Shown: piece after piece, positions 2,796 to 36,037 of the stretch | How the letters are laid out: the number at the start of each line of letters is the position of its first letter | How positions within the stretch are numbered: position 1 is the first letter of the stretch | IMG/VR virus record: IMGVR_UViG_3300050821_005814 | Span: 32,001 to 96,000 of that record | Reading direction: 5' to 3' (one strand) | Length of the DNA stretch: 64,000 nucleotides | Origin: a virus | The notes under the pieces: generated by a model | What the model was told of the DNA's origin: nothing | What the model saw: only the letters and a program-made list of their open reading frames with translations | Databases searched by the model: none | Made by a program: the position numbers and the translations under genes

Positions 2796-4400
2796 TCAGG
2801 CGGTGCCGTATGCCTTTCTGTTCATCTCGTTGATGGATGCGACAGTCTTGGCAGCAGTGTCAGCAGTACGACCGCCGCCGAACGTGTGCGCTGAGTTCTG
2901 CATGCCAGCCATCGTTGACGCTGCATTGAATGCGATCGAAATCGCGTCACACGTCCATGCAGTGTCATTGAACGCCGGACGGCGCGTGCCGATGACATCC
3001 TTGACGACCTGCTGCGTCTTCTCCGCCTTGTAGGCAGCATCGAGCACGCGACGCTTGAAGCTGCACATTGCGTCGAATGTCTTGTTGGCAGCCGCGTCCG
3101 CAACAAACGTCGGGAACGTCATGCCTGGCACAAGCTTCTCCGCTTTGGAGACCATGTCATCGAATGGTGCGCGCAGGTTGGTCGAATCACCGACCGCTGC
3201 CCGGCGACGGCGATCGCTTGTACCGCTTGCACGCGGCAAGCTTGGTATATGGCGACCATAGGCTTCGCTGACATCGATCTCGGTCCAACCTTCGGAGTCT
3301 TCCGCCTCCTCCTTGTTGCGCTCACGCCGACGACCGGACTCTTCTTCGCCCTCGAGCTCGCTCTCCGACTCGTCACGCATGCGCGCATCGCGGCTGCGAC
3401 GGTCACGCGTGCGCCGACTGCGATCACGCGTACGCCGGCGATCGCCCATCTCTTCGCGATCGCCGTCCTCGTCATCGTCGTCGTCGGGTTCCGCCCCTTC
3501 CTCCTGCGCGAGCATCGTCAGGATCTTCTCGATCGCATCGAGACGCTGCAAGACATTCGCCATGGGGTCACCGCCAGCAGCAGCGCCGCCTGCGGCAGCA
3601 CCGCCACCTTCCTCGGCATCGTCAGCAGGACGCTCAACAGCACCCCCGCCATTATGCAGGTGCACGTGAACCCCGCCCCCGCTCTCGCCGCCCATCATCT
3701 CATCCGAGATGATCTCACCAAGCATCTCAGGGTCGTGCTCAGCCTCTGTCACGGCAGCGAGGGCGTCGACAACGCTACCCCGCTTGACAGCCCTGCGAAA
3801 CCGATCCATGAAACGCGCACGCTGAACAGACTTTGGAAGTGCCATAGCTTGATCTCCAATTGCACAATGAGGACCGCACCGCCCCCTGTCGACGAGTGCG
3901 ACGTGGTTGCCGACAATGTTGAGGCAGCGTGCGCGGCCGGGCCCAAGCTGCTCATACTCTGCGTCGTATCCGGCCGAAATCTCCTTCTTGCCTGAGTTGA
4001 TTGCCTCAATCGCCTTCTTGTTGGTGACCAGGATGTCACCGAACATGAAGTCGTTGTCATACTGCAGCCCATCGCCACGACGGGGATTGAGGATGGTCCC
4101 CATTTGATAGTCGTGGCAGTTGTCGGGCGTCAGCATACCAATGGGAGGGTGGTCGTCAACGAACGGTTTCCCATTGTAGCTCGCAAGCGTCTGAGGCGCG
4201 AACACCTCCTCCGCATCGCGTTCGACTATAATCAGCCCATCCTTCCCAGCCTCGACTGCCGGGAGTTCATTTGCTGCATAGACTTGTGTGCCAATGCGCG
4301 CGATTGGCACATCCGTGATCAGCAAGAACCCCTCAGGCGTCAGAGCCCTATGGTCGGAGAGCGTCGAGGTTACATAGAACCTCTGCGTTGGCCCTGCCAT
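2796..4400 (-). CDS. DUF2213 prohead protease/scaffold protein
   Basis: TPEGFLLITDVPIARIGTQVY, GKPFVDDHP, EISAGYD, NHVALVDRGRCGPHCAIGD, followed by a charged scaffold-like C-terminal half. Confidence 0.9.
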   Translation of the reverse strand: MAGPTQRFYVTSTLSDHRALTPEGFLLITDVPIARIGTQVYAANELPAVEAGKDGLIIVERDAEEVFAPQTLASYNGKPFVDDHPPIGMLTPDNCHDYQMGTILNPRRGDGLQYDNDFMFGDILVTNKKAIEAINSGKKEISAGYDAEYEQLGPGRARCLNIVGNHVALVDRGRCGPHCAIGDQAMALPKSVQRARFMDRFRRAVKRGSVVDALAAVTEAEHDPEMLGEIISDEMMGGESGGGVHVHLHNGGGAVERPADDAEEGGGAAAGGAAAGGDPMANVLQRLDAIEKILTMLAQEEGAEPDDDDDEDGDREEMGDRRRTRDRSRRTRDRRSRDARMRDESESELEGEEESGRRRERNKEEAEDSEGWTEIDVSEAYGRHIPSLPRASGTSDRRRRAAVGDSTNLRAPFDDMVSKAEKLVPGMTFPTFVADAAANKTFDAMCSFKRRVLDAAYKAEKTQQVVKDVIGTRRPAFNDTAWTCDAISIAFNAASTMAGMQNSAHTFGGGRTADTAAKTVASINEMNRKAYGTA

Positions 4401-5999: not shown

Positions 6000-6335
6000 C
6001 TATGTTCCGCGAAAGATACCGTCTGTCAGCCACCCATGCCATTTGCATCCATGCGTACGCAAAATAGATGGTGTAGTCGTTGGCTTGTCTTCACTTCCGT
6101 TCCATGCCCATGCCTTCCCATATGCAGGATTGACTGTGACCGCTGCGATAGCGCCGCACCCGCATGGACATGTGAACCACAACGACGCAATCTTACCATC
6201 CGATCCGCGCATCCAGACGCCTGTGCCAGGTTCTAAGTCGCGACGGTAGTATACGCCATCTTCATAGTGCCGCTCCTCGTACTCGAGAAACAGCACTCGA
6301 TAGTCGACAAGCTTGAGCGGCACATCCGCCATCAC
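6000..6335 (-). CDS. DUF6527-like CPCGCG protein
   Basis: FTCPCGCG...WAWNGSEDKPTTTPSI...CKWHGWLTDGIF. Confidence 0.7.
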   Translation of the reverse strand: MMADVPLKLVDYRVLFLEYEERHYEDGVYYRRDLEPGTGVWMRGSDGKIASLWFTCPCGCGAIAAVTVNPAYGKAWAWNGSEDKPTTTPSILRTHGCKWHGWLTDGIFRGT

Positions 6336-6577
6336 ACACCCTTGTGAAAGTGAATGTGTATGCCGCGCTTTGGCTTGAGCTTTTTGACTGCAGGCGCAGC
6401 AGTCGCTGCTTCATCATCATCAGCAGCAAGCGGATCAAAGCCAAGCAACGCGACTACATCGTCTGGCGTCTTCGCTAGCGGCTCATCATCATCCGAACTG
6501 TCATCTTCGGACGGCATCACCTGCTGCTCGCTGATTGCGCCAACATGCACGTCAGGTAGGTCGTCAGACATTTGCAT
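6332..6577 (-). CDS. Small acidic hypothetical protein ending in IHIHFH
   Basis: MQMSDDLPD...TPDDVVALLGFDPL...KRGIHIHFHKGV; overlaps the topoisomerase stop. Confidence 0.65.
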   Translation of the reverse strand: MQMSDDLPDVHVGAISEQQVMPSEDDSSDDDEPLAKTPDDVVALLGFDPLAADDDEAATAAPAVKKLKPKRGIHIHFHKGV

Positions 6578-7535
6578 TGCCCCACGGCGCAAACACGACA
6601 GGCGAGATGTAGCTTTGCAGCGCGACGGTTGGCGTGTTGCCAAGCTTCGCTGCGACGACTTTCGCTACCTGCATGACAGCCTTCTTGTAGCCCGTCGCAT
6701 TTGCAGGCGGTGCGACCTTCGTGACTTCCTTCATCGCAGTCTTGGTGCCAACGAGTGTGCGAAAGTCTTTCGTCTTGAACCCGCCGCCGAATGAGTGCAC
6801 GTAGTCGAGCAAGCTCTTCTGATTGACGTTACCAAACAGGCGGCCGTTGTTTCCCGCTGCCTGCTTACGCTCGCGCAGCATCTTGCTGAGCGATGGGTCT
6901 TCAACTGGTAGGTCCAACGCAACGCCCTTCTTACCAACAAACTTGAGCGACACCTTATTACCCATGACGACTACATGCTGCCCCTCAAGTGTCGTCGCAC
7001 CATATGCCTTCACCTTCGCCTGCGTGTCCGTGTCCGACCCAGGACGCACGCCCATATCCATGATGAGCGCTGTAACATCGCCCAATGCACGATGCGTCGG
7101 GTTGCTGGACTTACGCATCTTCTCATTCTGCAAGCGAATGGTAGACAGCTTCGCGTCAAGTGTCTTGATGCGTGCGAACTTAGCAGCCGCCTGCTTCGCT
7201 GCATGCGACTCGGAGTAGACGTATTGCGTGCGTCCCGCCGCATCCTTGCCCGTCACCTGCAACGGCGCCTGGGGGTCTTCACTATAGGTGACATCCTTCC
7301 ATGCGGGAGGGATGCGTAGCTTGGCTATGTGCGCTGGCAGCTCACCGCCACCCTTCGCCTTGAAGCCGTTGGGGGTCTTCTCCGCTGACGTGTGCCCGCT
7401 AGCACCGCCGCCTTTGGGTGCAAACTCGCCAGCGTTCTCCGGTTGACCCCGCGGATGCTGCGACGACTCCCATGAGACGTCGACAACATGCACAAGCGAT
7501 CCCTTACTATCTAGCCAGAGGTGCACGCTAGGCAT
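6564..7535 (-). CDS. DNA topoisomerase IB (bacterial/viral type) with N-terminal virion-protein-like leader
   Basis: IPPAW, GKDAAGRTQYVY; catalytic residues in GVRPG (R), FVGKKG (K), KDFRT (R), LGNT (N) and SYI (Y). Likely start ATG 7535 overlaps the MuF stop. Confidence 0.93.
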   Translation of the reverse strand: MPSVHLWLDSKGSLVHVVDVSWESSQHPRGQPENAGEFAPKGGGASGHTSAEKTPNGFKAKGGGELPAHIAKLRIPPAWKDVTYSEDPQAPLQVTGKDAAGRTQYVYSESHAAKQAAAKFARIKTLDAKLSTIRLQNEKMRKSSNPTHRALGDVTALIMDMGVRPGSDTDTQAKVKAYGATTLEGQHVVVMGNKVSLKFVGKKGVALDLPVEDPSLSKMLRERKQAAGNNGRLFGNVNQKSLLDYVHSFGGGFKTKDFRTLVGTKTAMKEVTKVAPPANATGYKKAVMQVAKVVAAKLGNTPTVALQSYISPVVFAPWGNANV

Positions 7536-8322
7536 TTGGAATGACAGGCTCCGGATAGCAGCGACAGTTGTAGATAGCACCGGGATGCGCGCGTTCGCCG
7601 TTGCTACCAGCGATTGGCGGGGCATCCCAGCGATGAAACGTACCCTCAAGCTTCTTATGCAGCGGACGCACATTCCAGTCGTGGGCCGTACGCCAGATAT
7701 ATCCCTCAGACCCGATCTGCTTAGCGCGCGCTTGCGTGAGCGTTGTCGCAGCGCGAGTCGTTTCAGTGCGCGCTATCGTGTCAGCGCGCGACTTAGCAAC
7801 CTCACCCGACAACATGATCTGCTTTGCAAGTACTTCTGCCCGCTGACCGCTATAGAGCTGACCCGTCGCAATGGCTTGCACACGCTTCGCTGCTTCAAGG
7901 GGCAGCGATGTGATCAAGTCAACCTGCTCATCAAGCAACTGCCGCATGATCTCGCCAGTCGGCGTTTCAGCGAGCTCCTTGCGCAGCTCAAGCCCCATGA
8001 AGCGCGCGTACTGCGCCCATGCTTTCTCATCGCGACGTGACACGTCAGCAAGTAGTGACGCGGATATCGCGCGCGCCCAGGGACGCAGGATGACGGAATA
8101 CCGATCAAGCAAACGCGTCAATGTGTCCAGGTCATGCGGACTACCGCTCGCCATACCCTTGACGAGATCGCCTATGTGCTTTGCAACGCTGCGTAACTGC
8201 ACCGTGAACTTAACCTCAGCATTGCGTACTCTAGCAAATGCCTCGCGCTCCTTGCGCGTATCCCGCCGCGCGTCACCCACTCTAGCTGCGGGCAACGACA
8301 ACGGCGGGAGAGCATCAGGCAT
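7528..8322 (-). CDS. Phage head morphogenesis protein (MuF / SPP1 gp7 family)
   Basis: RADTIARTET, YIWRTAHDWNVRPLH, HPGAIYNCRCYPEP. Confidence 0.92.
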   Translation of the reverse strand: MPDALPPLSLPAARVGDARRDTRKEREAFARVRNAEVKFTVQLRSVAKHIGDLVKGMASGSPHDLDTLTRLLDRYSVILRPWARAISASLLADVSRRDEKAWAQYARFMGLELRKELAETPTGEIMRQLLDEQVDLITSLPLEAAKRVQAIATGQLYSGQRAEVLAKQIMLSGEVAKSRADTIARTETTRAATTLTQARAKQIGSEGYIWRTAHDWNVRPLHKKLEGTFHRWDAPPIAGSNGERAHPGAIYNCRCYPEPVIPNA

Positions 8323-9040: not shown

Positions 9041-11098
9041 CTACTTCACGGCGCGAACTGGCGGCTCACCTCGCCCATAGCGATGGTTGTCAAGCCATCC
9101 CTTGAGCGCTGCGACAGTCATCTGGCGAATAGTGCCGATGCGGTCTGATCCCCGACCATCAGAGAACGCTGCTTTGTATGCAGTCAGCGCTTGCTCGCGC
9201 GACGAGAAGCGCAGCATGCACTTGTGCTCATCGAACACACCGCTATCTGGGTTCAATTGCTCGATCACCCAACACTGCTCCTGCTTCTCGTCGTCGCCGA
9301 TGAAGCAATCCATTTGCTCGCGAGGACCTTCAGCCGATGATGTGCCACTAATATACCCATAATGCGCAGGCATCACTGTCGACCAGCCATACCCTTTGCG
9401 CGCCTCGCCTTTCGGCGTCTCGATGATGCATGTCAGCGGCCCGACATCGACCATGCTGAGCGCATCCATCTGCCGCGCGCGAATGATGTGGCGCAGGAGT
9501 AGCGCATTGCCTGACAACGGGATGCCTTGATCGTCTGTGTCGTCGGGTTTCTCGCTTTCAGCCTGCGGTCCCTCGAGCAGCGGTTCTGTGTTCTCACCAG
9601 CAGCGGGGGTCTGGGTGCTTTCAGGCATCGCGGGAGCAGCGCCGCTCATGCCTGGACCTCCCTGCATTGGCATCCCTGTCTGCGGATCGACCTCTGGCTG
9701 TCCAGGCAGAGGCGCTAATGCGTCGGCCTGTTCCGCCATGTCGAGATCTTCGTCCGTGATGTTGCTGCCAAACCCTGTGATGCGCGAGGACTGGCGAATC
9801 TCCATCATAGCGGTCTTCAGCGTGAAGACGCGATCCTGCAGTAGATTGCTCGTCGCACCTGCGATCGTGCCGGCGATCTGCGACTTCTCGAGCTCAGTCA
9901 ACTGCCATAGCGGCGCAAACTTGTAGTTGAACCCATCTGGCAGCGGTTCACCAAAATGCGACTGATGCGTGATGTGGAATAGGCGTGTGACAAACCGCCG
10001 CAAGCGCGCTTCCTGTTGGCTGCGCGTACCATCATAGTAATTGCGCAGGTCGCTATCGCCAGTCGAGTTCAGTCCTGCAGGCGACTGCGCGAACAAGCGC
10101 GTCATGGGAATGTCAGCGGCACCCGCGACCTGCTGCCCGAATTGCAGCATCATGTCGGACAGCCCAGCAAACGTGTATGACTGCGACTCAAAGTCGTCGG
10201 CTTTGTCAAGGACCGTCATGCCCTCAATCGACTGCATGACACGTATGAGCTGCATGAACTGCTTGACAGCATCCGCCATCTTGCCGCCAGCAGCGATGAT
10301 CTCCCGCAGGTTCTCAATCTTGAGTACGCGTAGGTGCGCTTTGTAGATGAGCTGCGCAGCGCCTTGCGTTGACGAGTCGAATGCGATCATGCGATCGAAC
10401 ACCGGCTCGATCACCGACGCACCCCAACCATTCTCAGTGATCAACTGCCAGTAGGGCAGCTCAATGCCATCCAAGCGTATGCAACGCGAATGGTGAATCT
10501 TCATATTGGGGATTGACCGCGCATCAGCGACCGTGTCATAGAACTTTGGCATACCAAAGTCAGGCCCGAAGTCAGTCACGGGGTTTTCGATATGCGGCCA
10601 TACCATCCAGCGATCGAGGACGAGTATTCCCTTGAACTGATTTTTGCTGACAGTCTCAACGCGCAAGGGGGTTGAGATGTCCTGCCCCTCAATCATGATG
10701 ACGCCAAGCGCACCGCCATACAGGCGCGACCACTTGAGCACACTATTGAGCCGCGACCAAATCTGCAAGTCGTTCCAATACTGGTTCAGCGAGTCAATGC
10801 GGTCGGGCGGCATGTCCGACTCAATGTTGACCCCTTCCCGCGTCATGTCGTCAGCGACTACGTCAACGACCTTGCGCACGAGCCATGCGCCACGATACAT
10901 CCACTCGAGTAGCGTATGGTTGCGGCTGAGCGGATTAAACCCATAGGTCGACGCGGACGAAAGGTTGTTCGTGCCATACCCAAGGTTAGCAGCAAAGTTC
11001 TGGAAGCTGTCTGCTGTACGCACACGCGCGATGGAGTCGCTCGTGTATGCCTGCACGCGCACGCGCGGCTTGATAGGTGCGATAGGCGCGTCACTCAC
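9041..11098 (-). CDS. Portal protein (DUF1073 family) with C-terminal inorganic pyrophosphatase-like domain
   Basis: WLVRKVVDVVADDMTREG, WSRLYGG, IHHSR, DIPMTRLFAQSPAGLNSTGDSDLRNYYD; C-terminal IETPKG...HYGYI...DCFIG...FDEHKCML. Start GTG 11098 is preferred; the ORF is open to 11164. Confidence 0.92.
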   Translation of the reverse strand: MSDAPIAPIKPRVRVQAYTSDSIARVRTADSFQNFAANLGYGTNNLSSASTYGFNPLSRNHTLLEWMYRGAWLVRKVVDVVADDMTREGVNIESDMPPDRIDSLNQYWNDLQIWSRLNSVLKWSRLYGGALGVIMIEGQDISTPLRVETVSKNQFKGILVLDRWMVWPHIENPVTDFGPDFGMPKFYDTVADARSIPNMKIHHSRCIRLDGIELPYWQLITENGWGASVIEPVFDRMIAFDSSTQGAAQLIYKAHLRVLKIENLREIIAAGGKMADAVKQFMQLIRVMQSIEGMTVLDKADDFESQSYTFAGLSDMMLQFGQQVAGAADIPMTRLFAQSPAGLNSTGDSDLRNYYDGTRSQQEARLRRFVTRLFHITHQSHFGEPLPDGFNYKFAPLWQLTELEKSQIAGTIAGATSNLLQDRVFTLKTAMMEIRQSSRITGFGSNITDEDLDMAEQADALAPLPGQPEVDPQTGMPMQGGPGMSGAAPAMPESTQTPAAGENTEPLLEGPQAESEKPDDTDDQGIPLSGNALLLRHIIRARQMDALSMVDVGPLTCIIETPKGEARKGYGWSTVMPAHYGYISGTSSAEGPREQMDCFIGDDEKQEQCWVIEQLNPDSGVFDEHKCMLRFSSREQALTAYKAAFSDGRGSDRIGTIRQMTVAALKGWLDNHRYGRGEPPVRAVK

Positions 11099-11394
11099 TT
11101 GCTTGACATCTCCTGCTGCTGCTGACGTAGTAATGCCAGCGCTTGGCTCAGCTTGCTGCTGCACTCGTCAAGGCGGTCGGCAGTCAGCGCACGCACATCC
11201 TCGTTCTTGTTAGCGTACTCAATGATGGAGTCGAAGGTCCGGGGTTGTTTAGGCTTCACGATAGCAGCGGGATGCGGCGCGCACCCCTGCTCGAGATCTG
11301 CAGGAAGGTGCATGTAAGGCGCAGTCGTTGCTTGCTGCGGCGCATGCGTGCAGCAGCTAAACATCATCAACAGGCTTGCAGGAACCAGACGCAA
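11095..11394 (-). CDS. Putative lipoprotein (o-spanin/Rz1-like)
   Basis: Hydrophobic N-terminus ending in FSCC, Pro-rich segment (PADLEQGC), C-terminal coiled coil. Confidence 0.45.
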   Translation of the reverse strand: MRLVPASLLMMFSCCTHAPQQATTAPYMHLPADLEQGCAPHPAAIVKPKQPRTFDSIIEYANKNEDVRALTADRLDECSSKLSQALALLRQQQQEMSSK

Positions 11395-13652: not shown

Positions 13653-13795
13653 AACCGGTACCGGACATAGCTCATCCGCCGCCCCAGCCGATACTCATTC
13701 CATTGCTGATGCCAGAGCGCACTTGCTTCCTGCGATGTCGTGATGCAGATCTCCCACCTGCCATCGCGGAACATGTAGACTGTATAGCGTATCAT
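13649..13795 (-). CDS. Small hypothetical protein (48 aa)
   Basis: Read manually: MIRYTVYMFRDGRWEIC...; ATGA-coupled to TerL and to the next gene. Confidence 0.5.
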   Translation of the reverse strand: MIRYTVYMFRDGRWEICITTSQEASALWHQQWNEYRLGRRMSYVRYRL

Positions 13796-15123
13796 CCTGC
13801 CAATTTCTCCCAAACGCCAAGACCACCACGCTTGGTAATATACCCGTCAAGCGAGTAACCGACCGCATCCCACCCATGGTTGTGCGCGTCGACTACTATC
13901 GGCAGTATCAGCGGCTGCTTTGTGACTGGATCAATACGCTTCTCGTCAGTCTTGTAGGAATAGAGCCTCGCCTCCTGCGCCATACCGACGCAGCGCTCGT
14001 GAATGTGAATCTTGCCAAAGCCCTTCAGGTGCGAGATGCGGTCTTCAACGCACCCCTGCCACTTGAGTGCAGCAGACATGTTGATGCCTTGCCGCAATAC
14101 ATAGCTGATCGTCTCCGGCCGCGCGTTGTCCGCCTTCACCGGCCAGTCAGTGATACCAGGAATGCCCTCGTACTGCATGCCGCTGATTGGTGCGCGGCCG
14201 CCCTTCAGCGCGTAGGGGATGTCTTCCAACTCAACGCCAACGCCGAAGAACTCATGCGTGATCCACAAGTCGTTGTTGTGGATGTAGCTGCGTATGCCGC
14301 ACAGCGGATCGTTCGCAAAGCCAAAGTCGACGCCGTAGAAGTACTTGTCGACGATCTCAGGTTCCTCGAACCCTTCGATCGCATAGCGGTCCTTGAAGAT
14401 AGCTGCTGACGAAATATGCCGGCACATACCCTCCCACACCCAGTCGTACGCGTCTGCGTCTGTCAGCATCATTTGCTTGCGCAGACGATTGAGCGACTCA
14501 GGGAACCATGGATTGTCCTGCCAGCCTACCTTCTCGACGAGTGCGTCTGTCGAATGACCTGTGACAAACGTCGCATACATGTAGTCGTCGGGATCAACGG
14601 CATTGAAGCTGATCCAAATCTCCGGGTTGATACCGCCACGCTCGCCTCTGATCGTTGGGTCGAGGAGCAGCATGGACTCGCGTGATGTCGTCTGCCCTTC
14701 CTCAATCCAGCAAATCGTCACACCTTCAAGCGATCGTATCTCAGCGATGTTACGCTTGAGTCCGCGGAAGATGAACTCACTACCCGTCAGCTTGCATCGT
14801 ATCGTGCGGTCGGTGATCTCGAAGAACGCTGCTAGTCCGAGTGCGCGTATCTGACCTGCAATGACACGATGCACGCTGTCAGCGATACTCGTCTGGAACT
14901 CACGCGTGCAGAGTATCAAATGTTTCTGCACCATCGCACGCCCAATTGCCGCACGTGCAAATGATCGGCTCTTAGCCCCGCCTCGACCGCCCCAGGCGAC
15001 CCGATATCTTACCGCCTCACCCGCGTCGGTCGTGCTCGCGGATAACAGCTTGCGAAAGCGCGGCGGGAAGCGGATGCGAAGAGGACCAGGACCTTCTGAA
15101 TCTGTGAGAGCGTCGAGAGGCAT
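13792..15123 (-). CDS. terL: Terminase large subunit (PBSX family)
   Basis: Walker A GGRGGAKS, Walker B CWIEEG, nuclease YGVDFGFANDP, HNHGWDAVGY. Confidence 0.95.
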   Translation of the reverse strand: MPLDALTDSEGPGPLRIRFPPRFRKLLSASTTDAGEAVRYRVAWGGRGGAKSRSFARAAIGRAMVQKHLILCTREFQTSIADSVHRVIAGQIRALGLAAFFEITDRTIRCKLTGSEFIFRGLKRNIAEIRSLEGVTICWIEEGQTTSRESMLLLDPTIRGERGGINPEIWISFNAVDPDDYMYATFVTGHSTDALVEKVGWQDNPWFPESLNRLRKQMMLTDADAYDWVWEGMCRHISSAAIFKDRYAIEGFEEPEIVDKYFYGVDFGFANDPLCGIRSYIHNNDLWITHEFFGVGVELEDIPYALKGGRAPISGMQYEGIPGITDWPVKADNARPETISYVLRQGINMSAALKWQGCVEDRISHLKGFGKIHIHERCVGMAQEARLYSYKTDEKRIDPVTKQPLILPIVVDAHNHGWDAVGYSLDGYITKRGGLGVWEKLAG

Positions 15124-33326: not shown

Positions 33327-33463
33327 AATGACGCGCATTGCAACTGGACTAGCGATAGCAGCAGCTATCGCTAGTATTTTTATGGGGATCCGGTTCATCA
33401 GCAATAGCTGTGCGATGGGCGACCTCAATAGCGCTTATTCTCACTCTACGCAGGAGCGCAAAG

Positions 33464-36037
33464 ATGGCGCTACCACTCAACGGTAGTCTATTTGAGGACA
33501 TTCCATTACCAACGACCATCCCAAAGACGCGTCGCTCAGGTGGCGGCGTAGCACGCGCGAAGCGCCAGCTTAGCCCAACTGAACGAGGATGCGATCACTG
33601 CCCCCTGCGCGAAACGTGGCCCCGCCTCACATCCCCACGCATGCCTGCATGCGGGAACACAGACGACCCCGACATCTTAGTGCTTGGCGAGGGGCCGGGC
33701 GAGGAAGAGGATGCAGAGGGAGAAGTGTTCATAGGCAAGAGCGGCAAGCTCCTGCGCCAATTTATCCCTGGTAGGTTTCGCGACCGCTTAGCATTCCAAA
33801 ATGCTGTGCGTTGCCGCCCAGACGACAATCAAACGCCTGACGCTGCCGAGCTACATGCATGCAGCATTCACGTCGACGCTGACATAAAGCAGCTAGGCGT
33901 TGGTTATATCCTCGGCGTTGGAGGTGTTCCGCTCTCCCGCTTCGTGCGCGGCAAGACAGCATCCATCCTTGCGATCCACGGCGTGCGCTTCCCCGTCGAG
34001 ATCAACGGTGAGACGTTATGGTACTACCCTGTGATGCACCCCTCGTTTGTCATGCGTATGGGCGATAGCAACGAAGGGCGGGGTGAAGGTCCTGCGATGC
34101 CTGTGTTCCGCGCTGACATGAAGCGCTTCTTTGCGGAAGTCGACTCATGGCCGCGTCCAGTCATCACGCCTATGAGTCCAAAGGATGTGCTGCTACCGCG
34201 GACGCGCGATGAGGCCGAGGCGCTGCTCGCTAAGATGCATGCTCCGGTCGGTCTTGATCTTGAAACGTCATCGCCGCATCCAGACCGCGTACCAAAGCCC
34301 TATATGATCGGCGCCAAACTCGTATCAGCAGCAATTAGTGACGGGAAGACAACCTTCGCGTTCGCAGTTGACGGTAACGAATGGGGACTGGACTTCCTGC
34401 TACAAATTGCAGAGGAGCACGAATGGATCGCGCAGAATGCCAGCTATGAGCTAGCCTGGCTGATCTACATGTCGCAGACAATGCGGCGCAATCGTCCGCT
34501 CAAACGATGCCAAGATACCATGGCGCTTGCGCGCATTTACCATCAGCGCGAAACTCTCCTGTCGCTCGCTGCGATCTCGCGCATACATCTCGGCGTTGAT
34601 GTCAAACAGATCATGGAGATCAACACAACGCGTCTTGATGCCTACCCAATCGAGGAGGTTTTGCAGTACAATGGGTTGGATGCACTAGCAACAGCCCTCA
34701 TCCATCGCAAACTGCATAAGCGCGTCGACCCCATGCTGTACGAGCAGATCATGGGCCGCACATACTCTGTCGTTGACATGGAGCTTGCAGGCCTGCCTGT
34801 GTCGATTGAGGTAGCTGAGAAGCTAGCGGTGAAATGGAAAGCTAAAGCAGATGAGGCTGAAGAGGCTGCTAAGAAGCTGCATGAGGTACGCGCTTATGAG
34901 GCCGCTGCGCAGGTAGCATTCTCCATCAGCAAGCCAGCGCAGGTCGGTGAAGCGCTTGTGCTGCACGGCAAGATCAACCTGCCGAAGACCGAGAAAGGGA
35001 AGCAGTACAACACGAAGGATGAGATCCTCAATGCGGAGTGCCCCGATCATCCATTAGCGAAAGCAGTGCTGAGTTGGCGTGAAGCAACGAAGGTGCGTTC
35101 GACCTATACGCTGTGTGTGATCGAGGTGCCAACCATCTACAAGGATGGCATGCTGCATCCCGGTTACAACACAATGCTCGTGTCGACCTTCCGCTTGTCG
35201 TCAGACGACCCCAACATTCAGAACTGGCCGAAGCGCAGCGCTGCGACGCGTGAGGTACGCAGCATGATTGAGGTGCCAGAAGGTTACGTTCTCGTCCCAA
35301 TGGACCAGGGGCAGATTCAGGTACGCATTATCGCAATGGCGTCTGGCGACAAGAAGCTGATCAAGAATCTCGTTGAGGGGCATGACACGCACACAGACTG
35401 GCTGAACAACACGATCGACATCTATCCCGACTACATAGACCGCCTCGCGCAGAAGGTCGGCGAGAAGGACGAGAAGAAGATCCGTAAGTACGGCCGCAAT
35501 ATCATCAAGACAGACTTCGTCTTCTACAGTCTGTTCGGCGGGGGATACAAAGGCATCGCGCGCACAACAGGCATCCCTGAGCGCCTATCAAGGGAACTGC
35601 AAGGCGAGTTCTTCCTCGAGTTCAAAGGTGTGAAGGACTGGCAGAATAGGCAGCGCAAGCAATACGCGGACACAGGCTCGATCACCGGACTGTCTGGTGA
35701 AACGCGCCATGCAATCTTGTGGGGCAATGAGCCGCTTAACACGCCGATCCAAATGGGCGAAGCGCAGATAGTCCTTGAAGCGCAAGCTGAGTTGGCGACG
35801 AAGGCGCGTGAGACCGGCGACAAGCACTACCTACCGCGCATCAGCGTGCATGATGACCTGACCTTCATACTACCCGATGACAACCGGCTCATGGGGTATA
35901 TTGAGGAGATAGCTGAGGTCATGCTGAAGGTGCGCTACGACTGGCAAATATGCCCCTTGAGCTTGGAGGTTCAGCTTGGCACCAACTGGGCGGACCTAAC
36001 TGAGGTCCATACGTTCACGGGGGACTATATGAGATGA
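33464..36037 (+). CDS. Family A DNA polymerase with N-terminal family-4 uracil-DNA glycosylase domain
   Basis: UDG: CDHC, GEGPG, FIGKSG, NAVRCRP, HPS. Exonuclease: DLET, YNGLD. Polymerase: RLSSDDPNIQN, DQGQIQVR, VHDD. Confidence 0.95.
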   Translation: MALPLNGSLFEDIPLPTTIPKTRRSGGGVARAKRQLSPTERGCDHCPLRETWPRLTSPRMPACGNTDDPDILVLGEGPGEEEDAEGEVFIGKSGKLLRQFIPGRFRDRLAFQNAVRCRPDDNQTPDAAELHACSIHVDADIKQLGVGYILGVGGVPLSRFVRGKTASILAIHGVRFPVEINGETLWYYPVMHPSFVMRMGDSNEGRGEGPAMPVFRADMKRFFAEVDSWPRPVITPMSPKDVLLPRTRDEAEALLAKMHAPVGLDLETSSPHPDRVPKPYMIGAKLVSAAISDGKTTFAFAVDGNEWGLDFLLQIAEEHEWIAQNASYELAWLIYMSQTMRRNRPLKRCQDTMALARIYHQRETLLSLAAISRIHLGVDVKQIMEINTTRLDAYPIEEVLQYNGLDALATALIHRKLHKRVDPMLYEQIMGRTYSVVDMELAGLPVSIEVAEKLAVKWKAKADEAEEAAKKLHEVRAYEAAAQVAFSISKPAQVGEALVLHGKINLPKTEKGKQYNTKDEILNAECPDHPLAKAVLSWREATKVRSTYTLCVIEVPTIYKDGMLHPGYNTMLVSTFRLSSDDPNIQNWPKRSAATREVRSMIEVPEGYVLVPMDQGQIQVRIIAMASGDKKLIKNLVEGHDTHTDWLNNTIDIYPDYIDRLAQKVGEKDEKKIRKYGRNIIKTDFVFYSLFGGGYKGIARTTGIPERLSRELQGEFFLEFKGVKDWQNRQRKQYADTGSITGLSGETRHAILWGNEPLNTPIQMGEAQIVLEAQAELATKARETGDKHYLPRISVHDDLTFILPDDNRLMGYIEEIAEVMLKVRYDWQICPLSLEVQLGTNWADLTEVHTFTGDYMR

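Follow-up and report, generated by a model that had tools for sequence, protein, structure and literature searches.

The window analysed here is a stretch of 64,000 nucleotides (bases 32001-96000) from IMGVR_UViG_3300050821_005814, an IMG/VR virus record of 106,805 bp, rated complete by CheckV. It carries a gene for a type IB topoisomerase (TopIB), which lies between genes for head proteins, opens with a leader that holds a short peptide (here called the tag), and overlaps a small acidic open reading frame (ORF) at its end. The enzyme belongs to a large clade found in uncultured phages, and on balance its sequence relationships suggest that it is cargo of the head module and not a replication enzyme. 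The features on which this reading turns are as follows.

6564..7535, minus strand: type IB topoisomerase gene, an ORF of 323 aa plus stop, with Pfam, PDB, AlphaFold2 (AF2) and VIA matches
7401..7535, minus strand: N-terminal leader, residues 1-45: a short beta-hairpin at 3-19, then the tag at 22-38, then a Gly-rich linker from residue 39
7422..7472, minus strand: tag core W22-F38, WESSQHPRGQPENAGEF, located by regular expression, by a profile made without the window row and by conservation
7206..7400, minus strand: N-terminal beta-sheet domain of TopIB, residues ~46-110, from AF2 strands, PF21338 on residues 69-98 and alignment with the variola N-domain
6567..7205, minus strand: catalytic domain of TopIB, residues ~111-323, from the alignment to 2f4q, conservation and VIA; it holds all pentad residues
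6609..6611, minus strand: catalytic Tyr codon TAC (Y309), aligned to Y289 of 2f4q and invariant
6332..6577, minus strand: small acidic partner of 81 aa, isoelectric point (pI) 4.3, whose ATG overlaps the last TopIB codons; core LPDVH.G...DDDE.L..TPDDVVALLGFDP

Identity of the enzyme

The ORF, which begins MPSVHLWLDSKGSLVHVVDVSWESSQHPRGQPENAGEF, is matched by two TopIB families of Pfam, PF01028 (5.4e-24, 85.2 bits, cut-off 23.7) and PF21338 (1.9e-9, 37.6 bits, cut-off 27). By sequence, its best solved relative is the TopIB of D. radiodurans (2f4q, 1.5e-31), followed by variola TopIB (2.5e-11). R164, K202, R259, N300 and Y309 align with the catalytic pentad of 2f4q (R137, K174, R239, N280 and Y289). 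Across 62 homologues, R164, K202, N300 and Y309 are invariant, and R259 is conserved in at least 90%. The original prediction had read a full TopIB catalytic set from the window alone, and both the alignment and the conservation bear it out; that the gene is on the minus strand is a point which that prediction left unstated.

Modeling leads to the same enzyme. With the 62-homologue alignment as input, AF2 returned a model (mean pLDDT 90, pTM 0.78) that has the two-domain TopIB fold, an N-terminal beta-sheet domain (strands 48-54, 57-60, 80-85, 92-97 and 103-107) joined to a tyrosine-recombinase-like catalytic domain. TopIB structures head the Foldseek matches of this model (3m4a, 5.7e-16; variola, TM 0.63), and VIA-align gives Z 21.9 to 3m4a, with a root-mean-square deviation of 2.5 over 204 residues, and Z 21.6 to variola TopIB over 271 residues. 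We considered a protelomerase or integrase and rejected it: TelA has a Foldseek E of 0.03, and Xer, Cre and integrases have Z of at most 15, as compared with ~1e-15 and ~21 for TopIB. The window enzyme is apparently a TopIB of the bacterial/poxvirus type, catalytically complete as far as its residues can tell.

Fused relatives and the head-module setting

The closest homologues of the window enzyme include in-frame fusions to portal, to NUDIX and to ADP-ribosyltransferase (ART) domains. [quoted passage not shown] These three architectures interleave in a maximum-likelihood tree of the enzyme domain, where well-supported branches force at least nine changes of solo state. The nearest relatives of the window TopIB are themselves portal-fused (61% identity for L002). 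The same mobility is seen among loci with closely related capsid genes: TopIB is portal-fused in L047, solo behind portal in L048, and solo behind MuF in L014 and in the window, while in L005, of the same capsid-related set, it sits inside a polyprotein of 1,273 aa. L014 also shares with the window the gene order MuF, TopIB, acidic ORF, DUF2213, capsid. Portal C-termini and prohead proteases are located within the prohead. Because the closest relatives are covalently fused to portal C-termini, to prohead proteases and into polyproteins, the capsid interior is the most economical location for the enzyme, and placing the solo TopIB inside the prohead is the simplest inference.

The genes around TopIB belong to the head module. 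The original prediction had described the gene as coupled behind MuF and as lying outside the replication arm, and it was right on both counts. The relevant neighbors are listed below.

7528..8322, minus strand: MuF-type head protein gene, directly upstream of TopIB (PF04233, 1.6e-16; phrog_324 'head morphogenesis', 2.2e-62)
9041..11164, minus strand: portal (Phage_portal_3/DUF1073) fused to InPase (PF06381, 1.5e-108; PF18823, 9.8e-29)
13792..15123, minus strand: TerL, a head-module gene on the same strand as TopIB
2796..4400, minus strand: DUF2213 prohead protease, whose C-terminal half is highly charged and resembles a scaffold (PF09979, 8.1e-45; phrog_530 and phrog_12864 'head maturation protease')

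In the direction of minus-strand transcription, the order is TerL, portal-InPase, two small genes, MuF, TopIB, the 81-aa acidic ORF, a DUF6527 gene, three unknown genes, the DUF2213 prohead protease and the capsid genes. TerL, portal, MuF and DUF2213 thus surround TopIB on one strand, as in the packaging neighborhoods typical of polyvalent proteins. The ATG of TopIB (7535..7533) shares 8 nt with the end of MuF, including its TAG stop, and a GGAG lies 13 nt 5′ of it. The TopIB frame is offset by +1 from that of MuF and has its own ATG, and MuF ends with its own stop; hence this is not a MuF-effector fusion. Three other readings of the gene were rejected. The plus strand of 6564..7535 has stops throughout. 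A longer start at 7673 (369 aa) would overlap MuF by 146 nt and add residues that are unconserved. A MuF-TopIB fusion by frameshift would call for a +1 shift, and in the relative L014, too, MuF and TopIB are separate genes.

The replication genes lie on the plus strand from about 33 kb, ~26 kb away from TopIB. They encode PolA with a UDG-like domain, gp32-like and RecA-like proteins, RNR, ThyX, and DnaB and SNF2 helicases, and no other topoisomerase match was found in this arm. The polymerase (33410..36037, plus strand) is an 875-aa family A enzyme with N-terminal UDG-superfamily and 3′-5′ exonuclease domains in one ORF.

An alternative is that TopIB stays in the cytoplasm as an unpackaged late helper, which removes torsion ahead of terminase on replicating or concatemeric DNA and is left behind at lysis; the tag would then serve for transient docking at the portal vertex, or would be irrelevant. 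The gene does lie in a late head operon beside packaging genes, and its product is a separate polypeptide. Moreover, it is established for the family that TopIB needs no cofactor and relaxes supercoils of both signs. On the other hand, close relatives are in frame with the portal C-terminus, with prohead proteases and within ART/NUDIX/zeta-kinase polyproteins, and such frequent tethering in the prohead, with repeated swaps between solo and fused states on the tree, is unexpected for a purely cytoplasmic enzyme. We regard this alternative as rather unlikely.

Other observations on the neighboring genes may be recorded here. The long middle region of the DUF2213 protease is extremely charged, with D/E runs followed by R/D/S repeats, and resembles a built-in scaffold. 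In the portal-InPase protein, the C-terminal InPase (pyrophosphatase-like) follows a Pro/Gly/Glu-rich linker that lacks the HPR tag. The DUF6527 gene (6000..6335, minus strand) has a start that overlaps the stop of the acidic ORF, and its homologue adjoins portal in L005. Beyond the window, the minus strand has two very large ORFs of 2,177 and 1,935 aa (G000:C1:18088-30936), downstream of the head genes in what is presumed to be the tail region.

The tag and the acidic partner

Variola TopIB residues 1-288 map onto residues 46-323 of the AF2 model, so the leader (residues 1-45) is without counterpart in solved TopIBs. In the model, leader strands 3-8 and 14-19 have a pLDDT of ~80, the tag ~63, and residues 35-44 fall below 50. 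We built a profile from 75 tags of 66 viral loci. Without the window row, it still finds the leader at 47 bits (E 8e-14), which is its sole match in the 106.8-kb genome. The tag is followed by a Gly-rich linker (residues ~39-47) and the TopIB domain, the arrangement that defines the tag family. The original prediction had noticed this peptide, writing it as W..S.HPR....G.F. The peptide is real, and the spacing needs correction, as six residues and not four separate HPR from G.F.

The family to which this peptide belongs is large. At E <= 1e-3, the profile matches 4,360 representative clusters among 1.84 billion, 606 of them at E <= 1e-10. In 508 copies the consensus is W/F at position -5 (97%), E at -3 (93%), HPR, three or six residues, and G-x-F, followed by a tail rich in G/S/A; HPR is fixed in these copies by the pattern used to collect them, and is invariant in alignment A1. 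A protein may hold up to 18 tags. The median distance is 272 aa from tag to tag and 309 aa from the last tag to the C-terminus, which amounts to about one tag per domain, with a domain following in every case. The domains behind the tag are TopIB, NUDIX, ADPrib_exo_Tox, ART-PolyVal, zeta-toxin kinase, GNAT, RelA/SpoT-like and DUF7178, of types typical of polyvalent proteins. Its carriers are portals of two Pfam families, DUF2213 and S78_2 proteases, and stand-alone proteins. The original prediction called such a peptide common at the start of cargo domains in phage head regions, and this has proved sound.

Several loci illustrate this spread. L005 (2690-18151), the closest relative by capsid and MuF genes, has eight tags over five head-module proteins, two of which are small, tag-led and encoded downstream of the major capsid gene; its 1,273-aa polyprotein has four tags, includes a NUDIX domain and ends with TopIB. 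In L074 (1719-14850), a contig binned as 'archaeon', a 2,419-aa ORF ends in a TopIB of the phage clade and is followed by the acidic module, beyond which lies an ORF of >1,900 aa with four tags.

Is the tag also maintained on TopIB itself? Homologues at 50-62% identity number 2,733 matches, nearly all metagenomic. In 15/15 that were inspected, [F/W]-x-E-[S/A]-x-HPR...G-x-F stands directly before the TopIB domain, be the enzyme solo or behind a portal C-terminus, a NUDIX or an ADP-ribosyltransferase domain, and some of these proteins repeat the tag for each domain. Where TopIB starts within 130 residues of the N-terminus, the strict pattern is present in 64 of 79 close homologues. Of the other 15, most show HKR or HLR as near variants, have a variant tag NP[CY]H.P.G.KGG[EQ]F, or are cut gene calls. 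This variant tag replaces the HPR tag at the same place in P0050, P0078, P0082, P0086, P0114 and P0119. In the alignment of 62 sequences, conservation reaches at least 90% at H27, P28, R29 and G36, and F38 does not vary, which is the level of catalytic residues, and the linker between tag and enzyme ranges from 21 to 69 residues among solo-like homologues. When tag copies of one genome are compared, 31-70% of their identical residues are encoded by different codons (19/30 in L053). With so many synonymous differences, we rejected the idea of the tag as a mere recombination junction at the DNA level.

Could the leader be a leftover, without function since a fused ancestor recently split, and thus uninformative on location? 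Fusion and fission are frequent in the clade, the window tag is slightly off consensus, and it is the only tag in its genome. Nevertheless, solo homologues have retained the tag at only 50-60% identity in the enzyme domain, and it is conserved there like catalytic residues, and the peptide persists while the adjoining linker is free in length and synonymous sites vary. We consider a remnant very improbable. Conserved residues, variable linker and synonymous differences together argue against a tag that is only a recombination sequence, and against a neutral remnant; by these comparisons, selection acts on the peptide, even in proteins with no upstream domain to join. In the window protein, its action is not linker work, because there is no upstream domain from which TopIB would have to be separated.

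As to what the tag does, the original prediction held that the leader is clipped after Asp by the prohead protease, and this detail found no support: no fixed upstream position has a conserved Asp among the 508 copies, where position -6 is E, D or A in 24, 21 and 20% and position -8 is D in 15%. D19 of the window protein stands at this position -8. The only conserved acid is the Glu at -3, which would be a better cut candidate than Asp if the tag is a protease site, by analogy with the Glu-specific prohead proteases of T4 and phiKZ. A processing site is favored by the tags that stand at each domain border and immediately behind DUF2213 protease domains (L062, L064). In favor of a docking role as well, the tag is kept on solo proteins.

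The second distinctive feature of the locus is the acidic partner. Its first 62 residues include 18 D/E as compared with 1 K/R, while the pI of TopIB is ~9.9. The core of the acidic module, LPDVHFG...DWR...DDDEEL.ETP.DVV.MLGFDP, lies within ~135 nt after TopIB in most loci, and an acidic homologue or GFDP core follows TopIB in 43 of 45 informative viral loci. The module is in frame with TopIB in L037, L038, P0120 and P0139, and in L003, L017, L023 and L039 the DUF2213 protease ORF begins with it. A single ORF of L038 (8342-11605) strings together portal, TopIB, acidic module and InPase. Ten contigs from metagenome-assembled genomes with a phage-clade TopIB (37-55% identical) have the partner in all ten, a strict-pattern tag in about half, and head genes in four. 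Eight cellular TopIB loci (24-32% identical; Rhodobacterales, Sphingomonas) have no tag, no partner and no head genes.

A small ORF behind a potentially harmful enzyme also brings to mind a toxin-immunity-like pair, in which TopIB would damage or relax the DNA of the host or of a competitor, and the acidic protein would protect the producer without being delivered, as has been proposed for polymorphic toxins of the MuF type. Small downstream ORFs are a hallmark of 89% of MuF toxins (PMC5576092). In addition, a strongly acidic partner stands beside a basic enzyme, the linkage between them is near-universal, and the same tag stands ahead of ART and zeta-toxin domains. However, the window enzyme is unfused to MuF, the genome encodes PolA, RNR, ThyX and helicases, and in other phages the partner, in frame with TopIB or at the N-terminus of a prohead protease, would travel into the head. 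We judge such a pair to be quite unlikely. As the acidic module is fused to prohead protease and to TopIB in other phages, it would enter the head, and we argue from these fusions that an adaptor or in-head inhibitor fits better than an immunity protein that stays behind.

The tag and the acidic partner appear to be two uncatalogued families. Pfam, searched at E up to 10, has no family for either. The tag profile found no solved structure with the tag in the PDB, only a chance match to cyclin-Y (E 0.14). The PHROG portal families 113 and 15528 contain the tag, as does family 30637. A word-based search with the leader alone gave three candidates, none of them useful, and an ESM Atlas search with the acidic protein returned it as disordered, with scores under 0.9. 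Literature searches retrieved no paper on a phage-head TopIB or on the tag, and no topoisomerase among head-carried phage enzymes.

Proposed loading and comparison with known systems

We propose that TopIB is made late and would enter the procapsid via the tag, acting as a docking peptide or a prohead-protease substrate, and/or via the acidic partner, which may mask the very basic enzyme (pI ~10) until the DNA arrives. The enzyme would then exit the head with the genome and relax supercoils of the incoming phage DNA or the host chromosome. The original prediction likewise had the enzyme injected with the DNA; the roles that it named, relief of torsion during packaging, entry or first transcription, are putative. 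Enzymes carried in phage heads are known, among them T4 Alt, N4 RNA polymerase, and fusions to MuF or portal. Poxvirus TopIB in the virion is thought to aid early transcription. Two precedents bear on the proposal. A MuF-ART protein was detected by mass spectrometry in purified AXL1 virions (PMC9206674), and vaccinia H6R topoisomerase is among the listed known virion enzymes (PMC1540416). The window TopIB is probably carried in the virus head, as the poxvirus enzyme is in its virion. It is also possible, more tentatively, that the tag serves a very large group of tailed phages as a general signal for capsid loading and processing, with the acidic LLGFDP module as a head-borne adaptor or inhibitor specific to TopIB; many phages would in that case bring a pre-made topoisomerase along with their DNA.

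Several observations weigh against head loading by way of tag and partner. The window TopIB is not covalently joined to a head protein, so that the fusion argument applies to it by homology. Its tag has the Glu shifted by one position (W-E-S-S-Q-HPR, as compared with [W/F]-x-E-S-x-HPR). The portal-InPase protein brings a second cargo enzyme into the same head module, joined without a tag, and the portal-fused TopIB of L038 lacks one too, which means that the tag is dispensable in at least one fused arrangement. In an AF2 model of the natural fusion P0120, the acidic part is disordered (pLDDT 33-50) and gives masking no structural support. Furthermore, the phage is uncultured, and we found no cultured phage with this enzyme or tag. 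Searches of INPHARED gave one weak match to the TopIB query (Bacteroides phage BS162P1) and no match to the tag peptide or to a tag-ART protein. With a tag-zeta query, only the kinase-like part was matched (Cyanophage PSS2, Bacteroides phages), and the minor head protein of PSS2 lacks the tag. The portal-InPase query retrieved 1,658 cultured portal relatives, none of which covers >=80% of it; identities of ~51% occur among them, as in Burkholderia phage Magia.

If the window TopIB does enter the head, delivery of a type IB topoisomerase into the cell would be common to tailed phages and poxviruses, and one early target of infection would be the supercoiling state of the host chromosome or of the incoming genome. 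Forterre and Gadelle proposed an 'undiscovered viral TopIB group' as the source of bacterial TopIB (PMC2647321), and on the more tentative reading the tagged phage clade would be a candidate for that group. The tag is perhaps more important than the enzyme, being a peptide of 17 residues that recurs in >4,000 protein clusters and marks almost all domain borders in head-module polyproteins. Given how widely it occurs at domain borders, it is a testable candidate for a general signal of loading or processing. If so, the prohead would take in any domain behind the tag, be it part of a portal, part of a protease or stand-alone, and the prohead protease would set that domain free. Such a role would aid the annotation of cargo in viromes and could allow chosen proteins to be placed in phage capsids in laboratory systems. 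The stand-alone form in the window is the cleanest test case for tag function. The acidic partner adds a second uncatalogued family, very tightly linked to one enzyme. The contributions of the window are a stand-alone, tag-led TopIB, a family-wide description of the tag, and a control that sets cellular against phage loci. Among known head-module cargo enzymes, its form is that of a stand-alone tagged TopIB.

Like the window enzyme, D. radiodurans TopIB (2f4q/3m4a) has the two-domain fold and the R-K-R-N-Y pentad with Asn as fourth residue, and the two are ~30% identical. The cellular TopIBs sampled from genomes (24-32% identity) differ in that they are without the 45-residue leader, the tag, the acidic partner and neighboring head genes. 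Poxvirus TopIB (vaccinia H6R, variola; 2h7f/3igc) is likewise a small two-domain enzyme and offers the closest functional analogy for a topoisomerase borne in a particle. It differs in sequence (~20% identity), with His in the pentad where the window enzyme has Asn, in the lack of tag and acidic partner, and in belonging to a eukaryotic virus with another particle and loading route. Packaging is an established property of the poxvirus enzyme and a predicted one of the window enzyme. The poxvirus gene is of the late class (PMC11980589).

Polyvalent proteins, as described by Iyer et al. (2017; PMC5512222), include MuF and portal fusions, among them a portal-InPase fusion (BcepF1.124 of Burkholderia phage BcepF1). 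The window shares with them the portal/MuF/terminase neighborhood, and its portal has that InPase fusion. Homologues of its TopIB also occur in multi-domain proteins with ART-PolyVal, NUDIX, zeta and GNAT. The window protein, in contrast, is a stand-alone product with a single enzyme behind its leader, short of the two effectors of a polyvalent protein, which the homologues in L005, L016 and L053, among others, do have. A text search of PMC5512222 found TopIB only in the title of a reference, and neither 'HPR' nor 'linker'.

MuF polymorphic toxins, as surveyed by Jamet et al. (2017; PMC5576092), come with small downstream ORFs; that survey has no topoisomerase and no such motif. Here too a variable enzyme module is tied to MuF and followed by a small ORF, which in the window encodes 81 aa and overlaps the TopIB stop. 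The window enzyme, however, is a separate gene and not the C-terminus of MuF, and in its relatives the acidic module, being joined to TopIB or to the prohead protease, is at odds with an immunity protein that stays behind.

The working model nearest to the idea of the original prediction is the capsid-targeting sequence of T4. The internal proteins of T4 and Alt have an N-terminal leader of ~10 residues, are loaded into the prohead, are cut by the protease after Glu and are ejected with the DNA. As proposed for the tag, a short N-terminal leader is placed there on enzymes. The T4 leader is unrelated in sequence and is not repeated between domains, and for the tag, unlike that leader, targeting and cleavage are putative.

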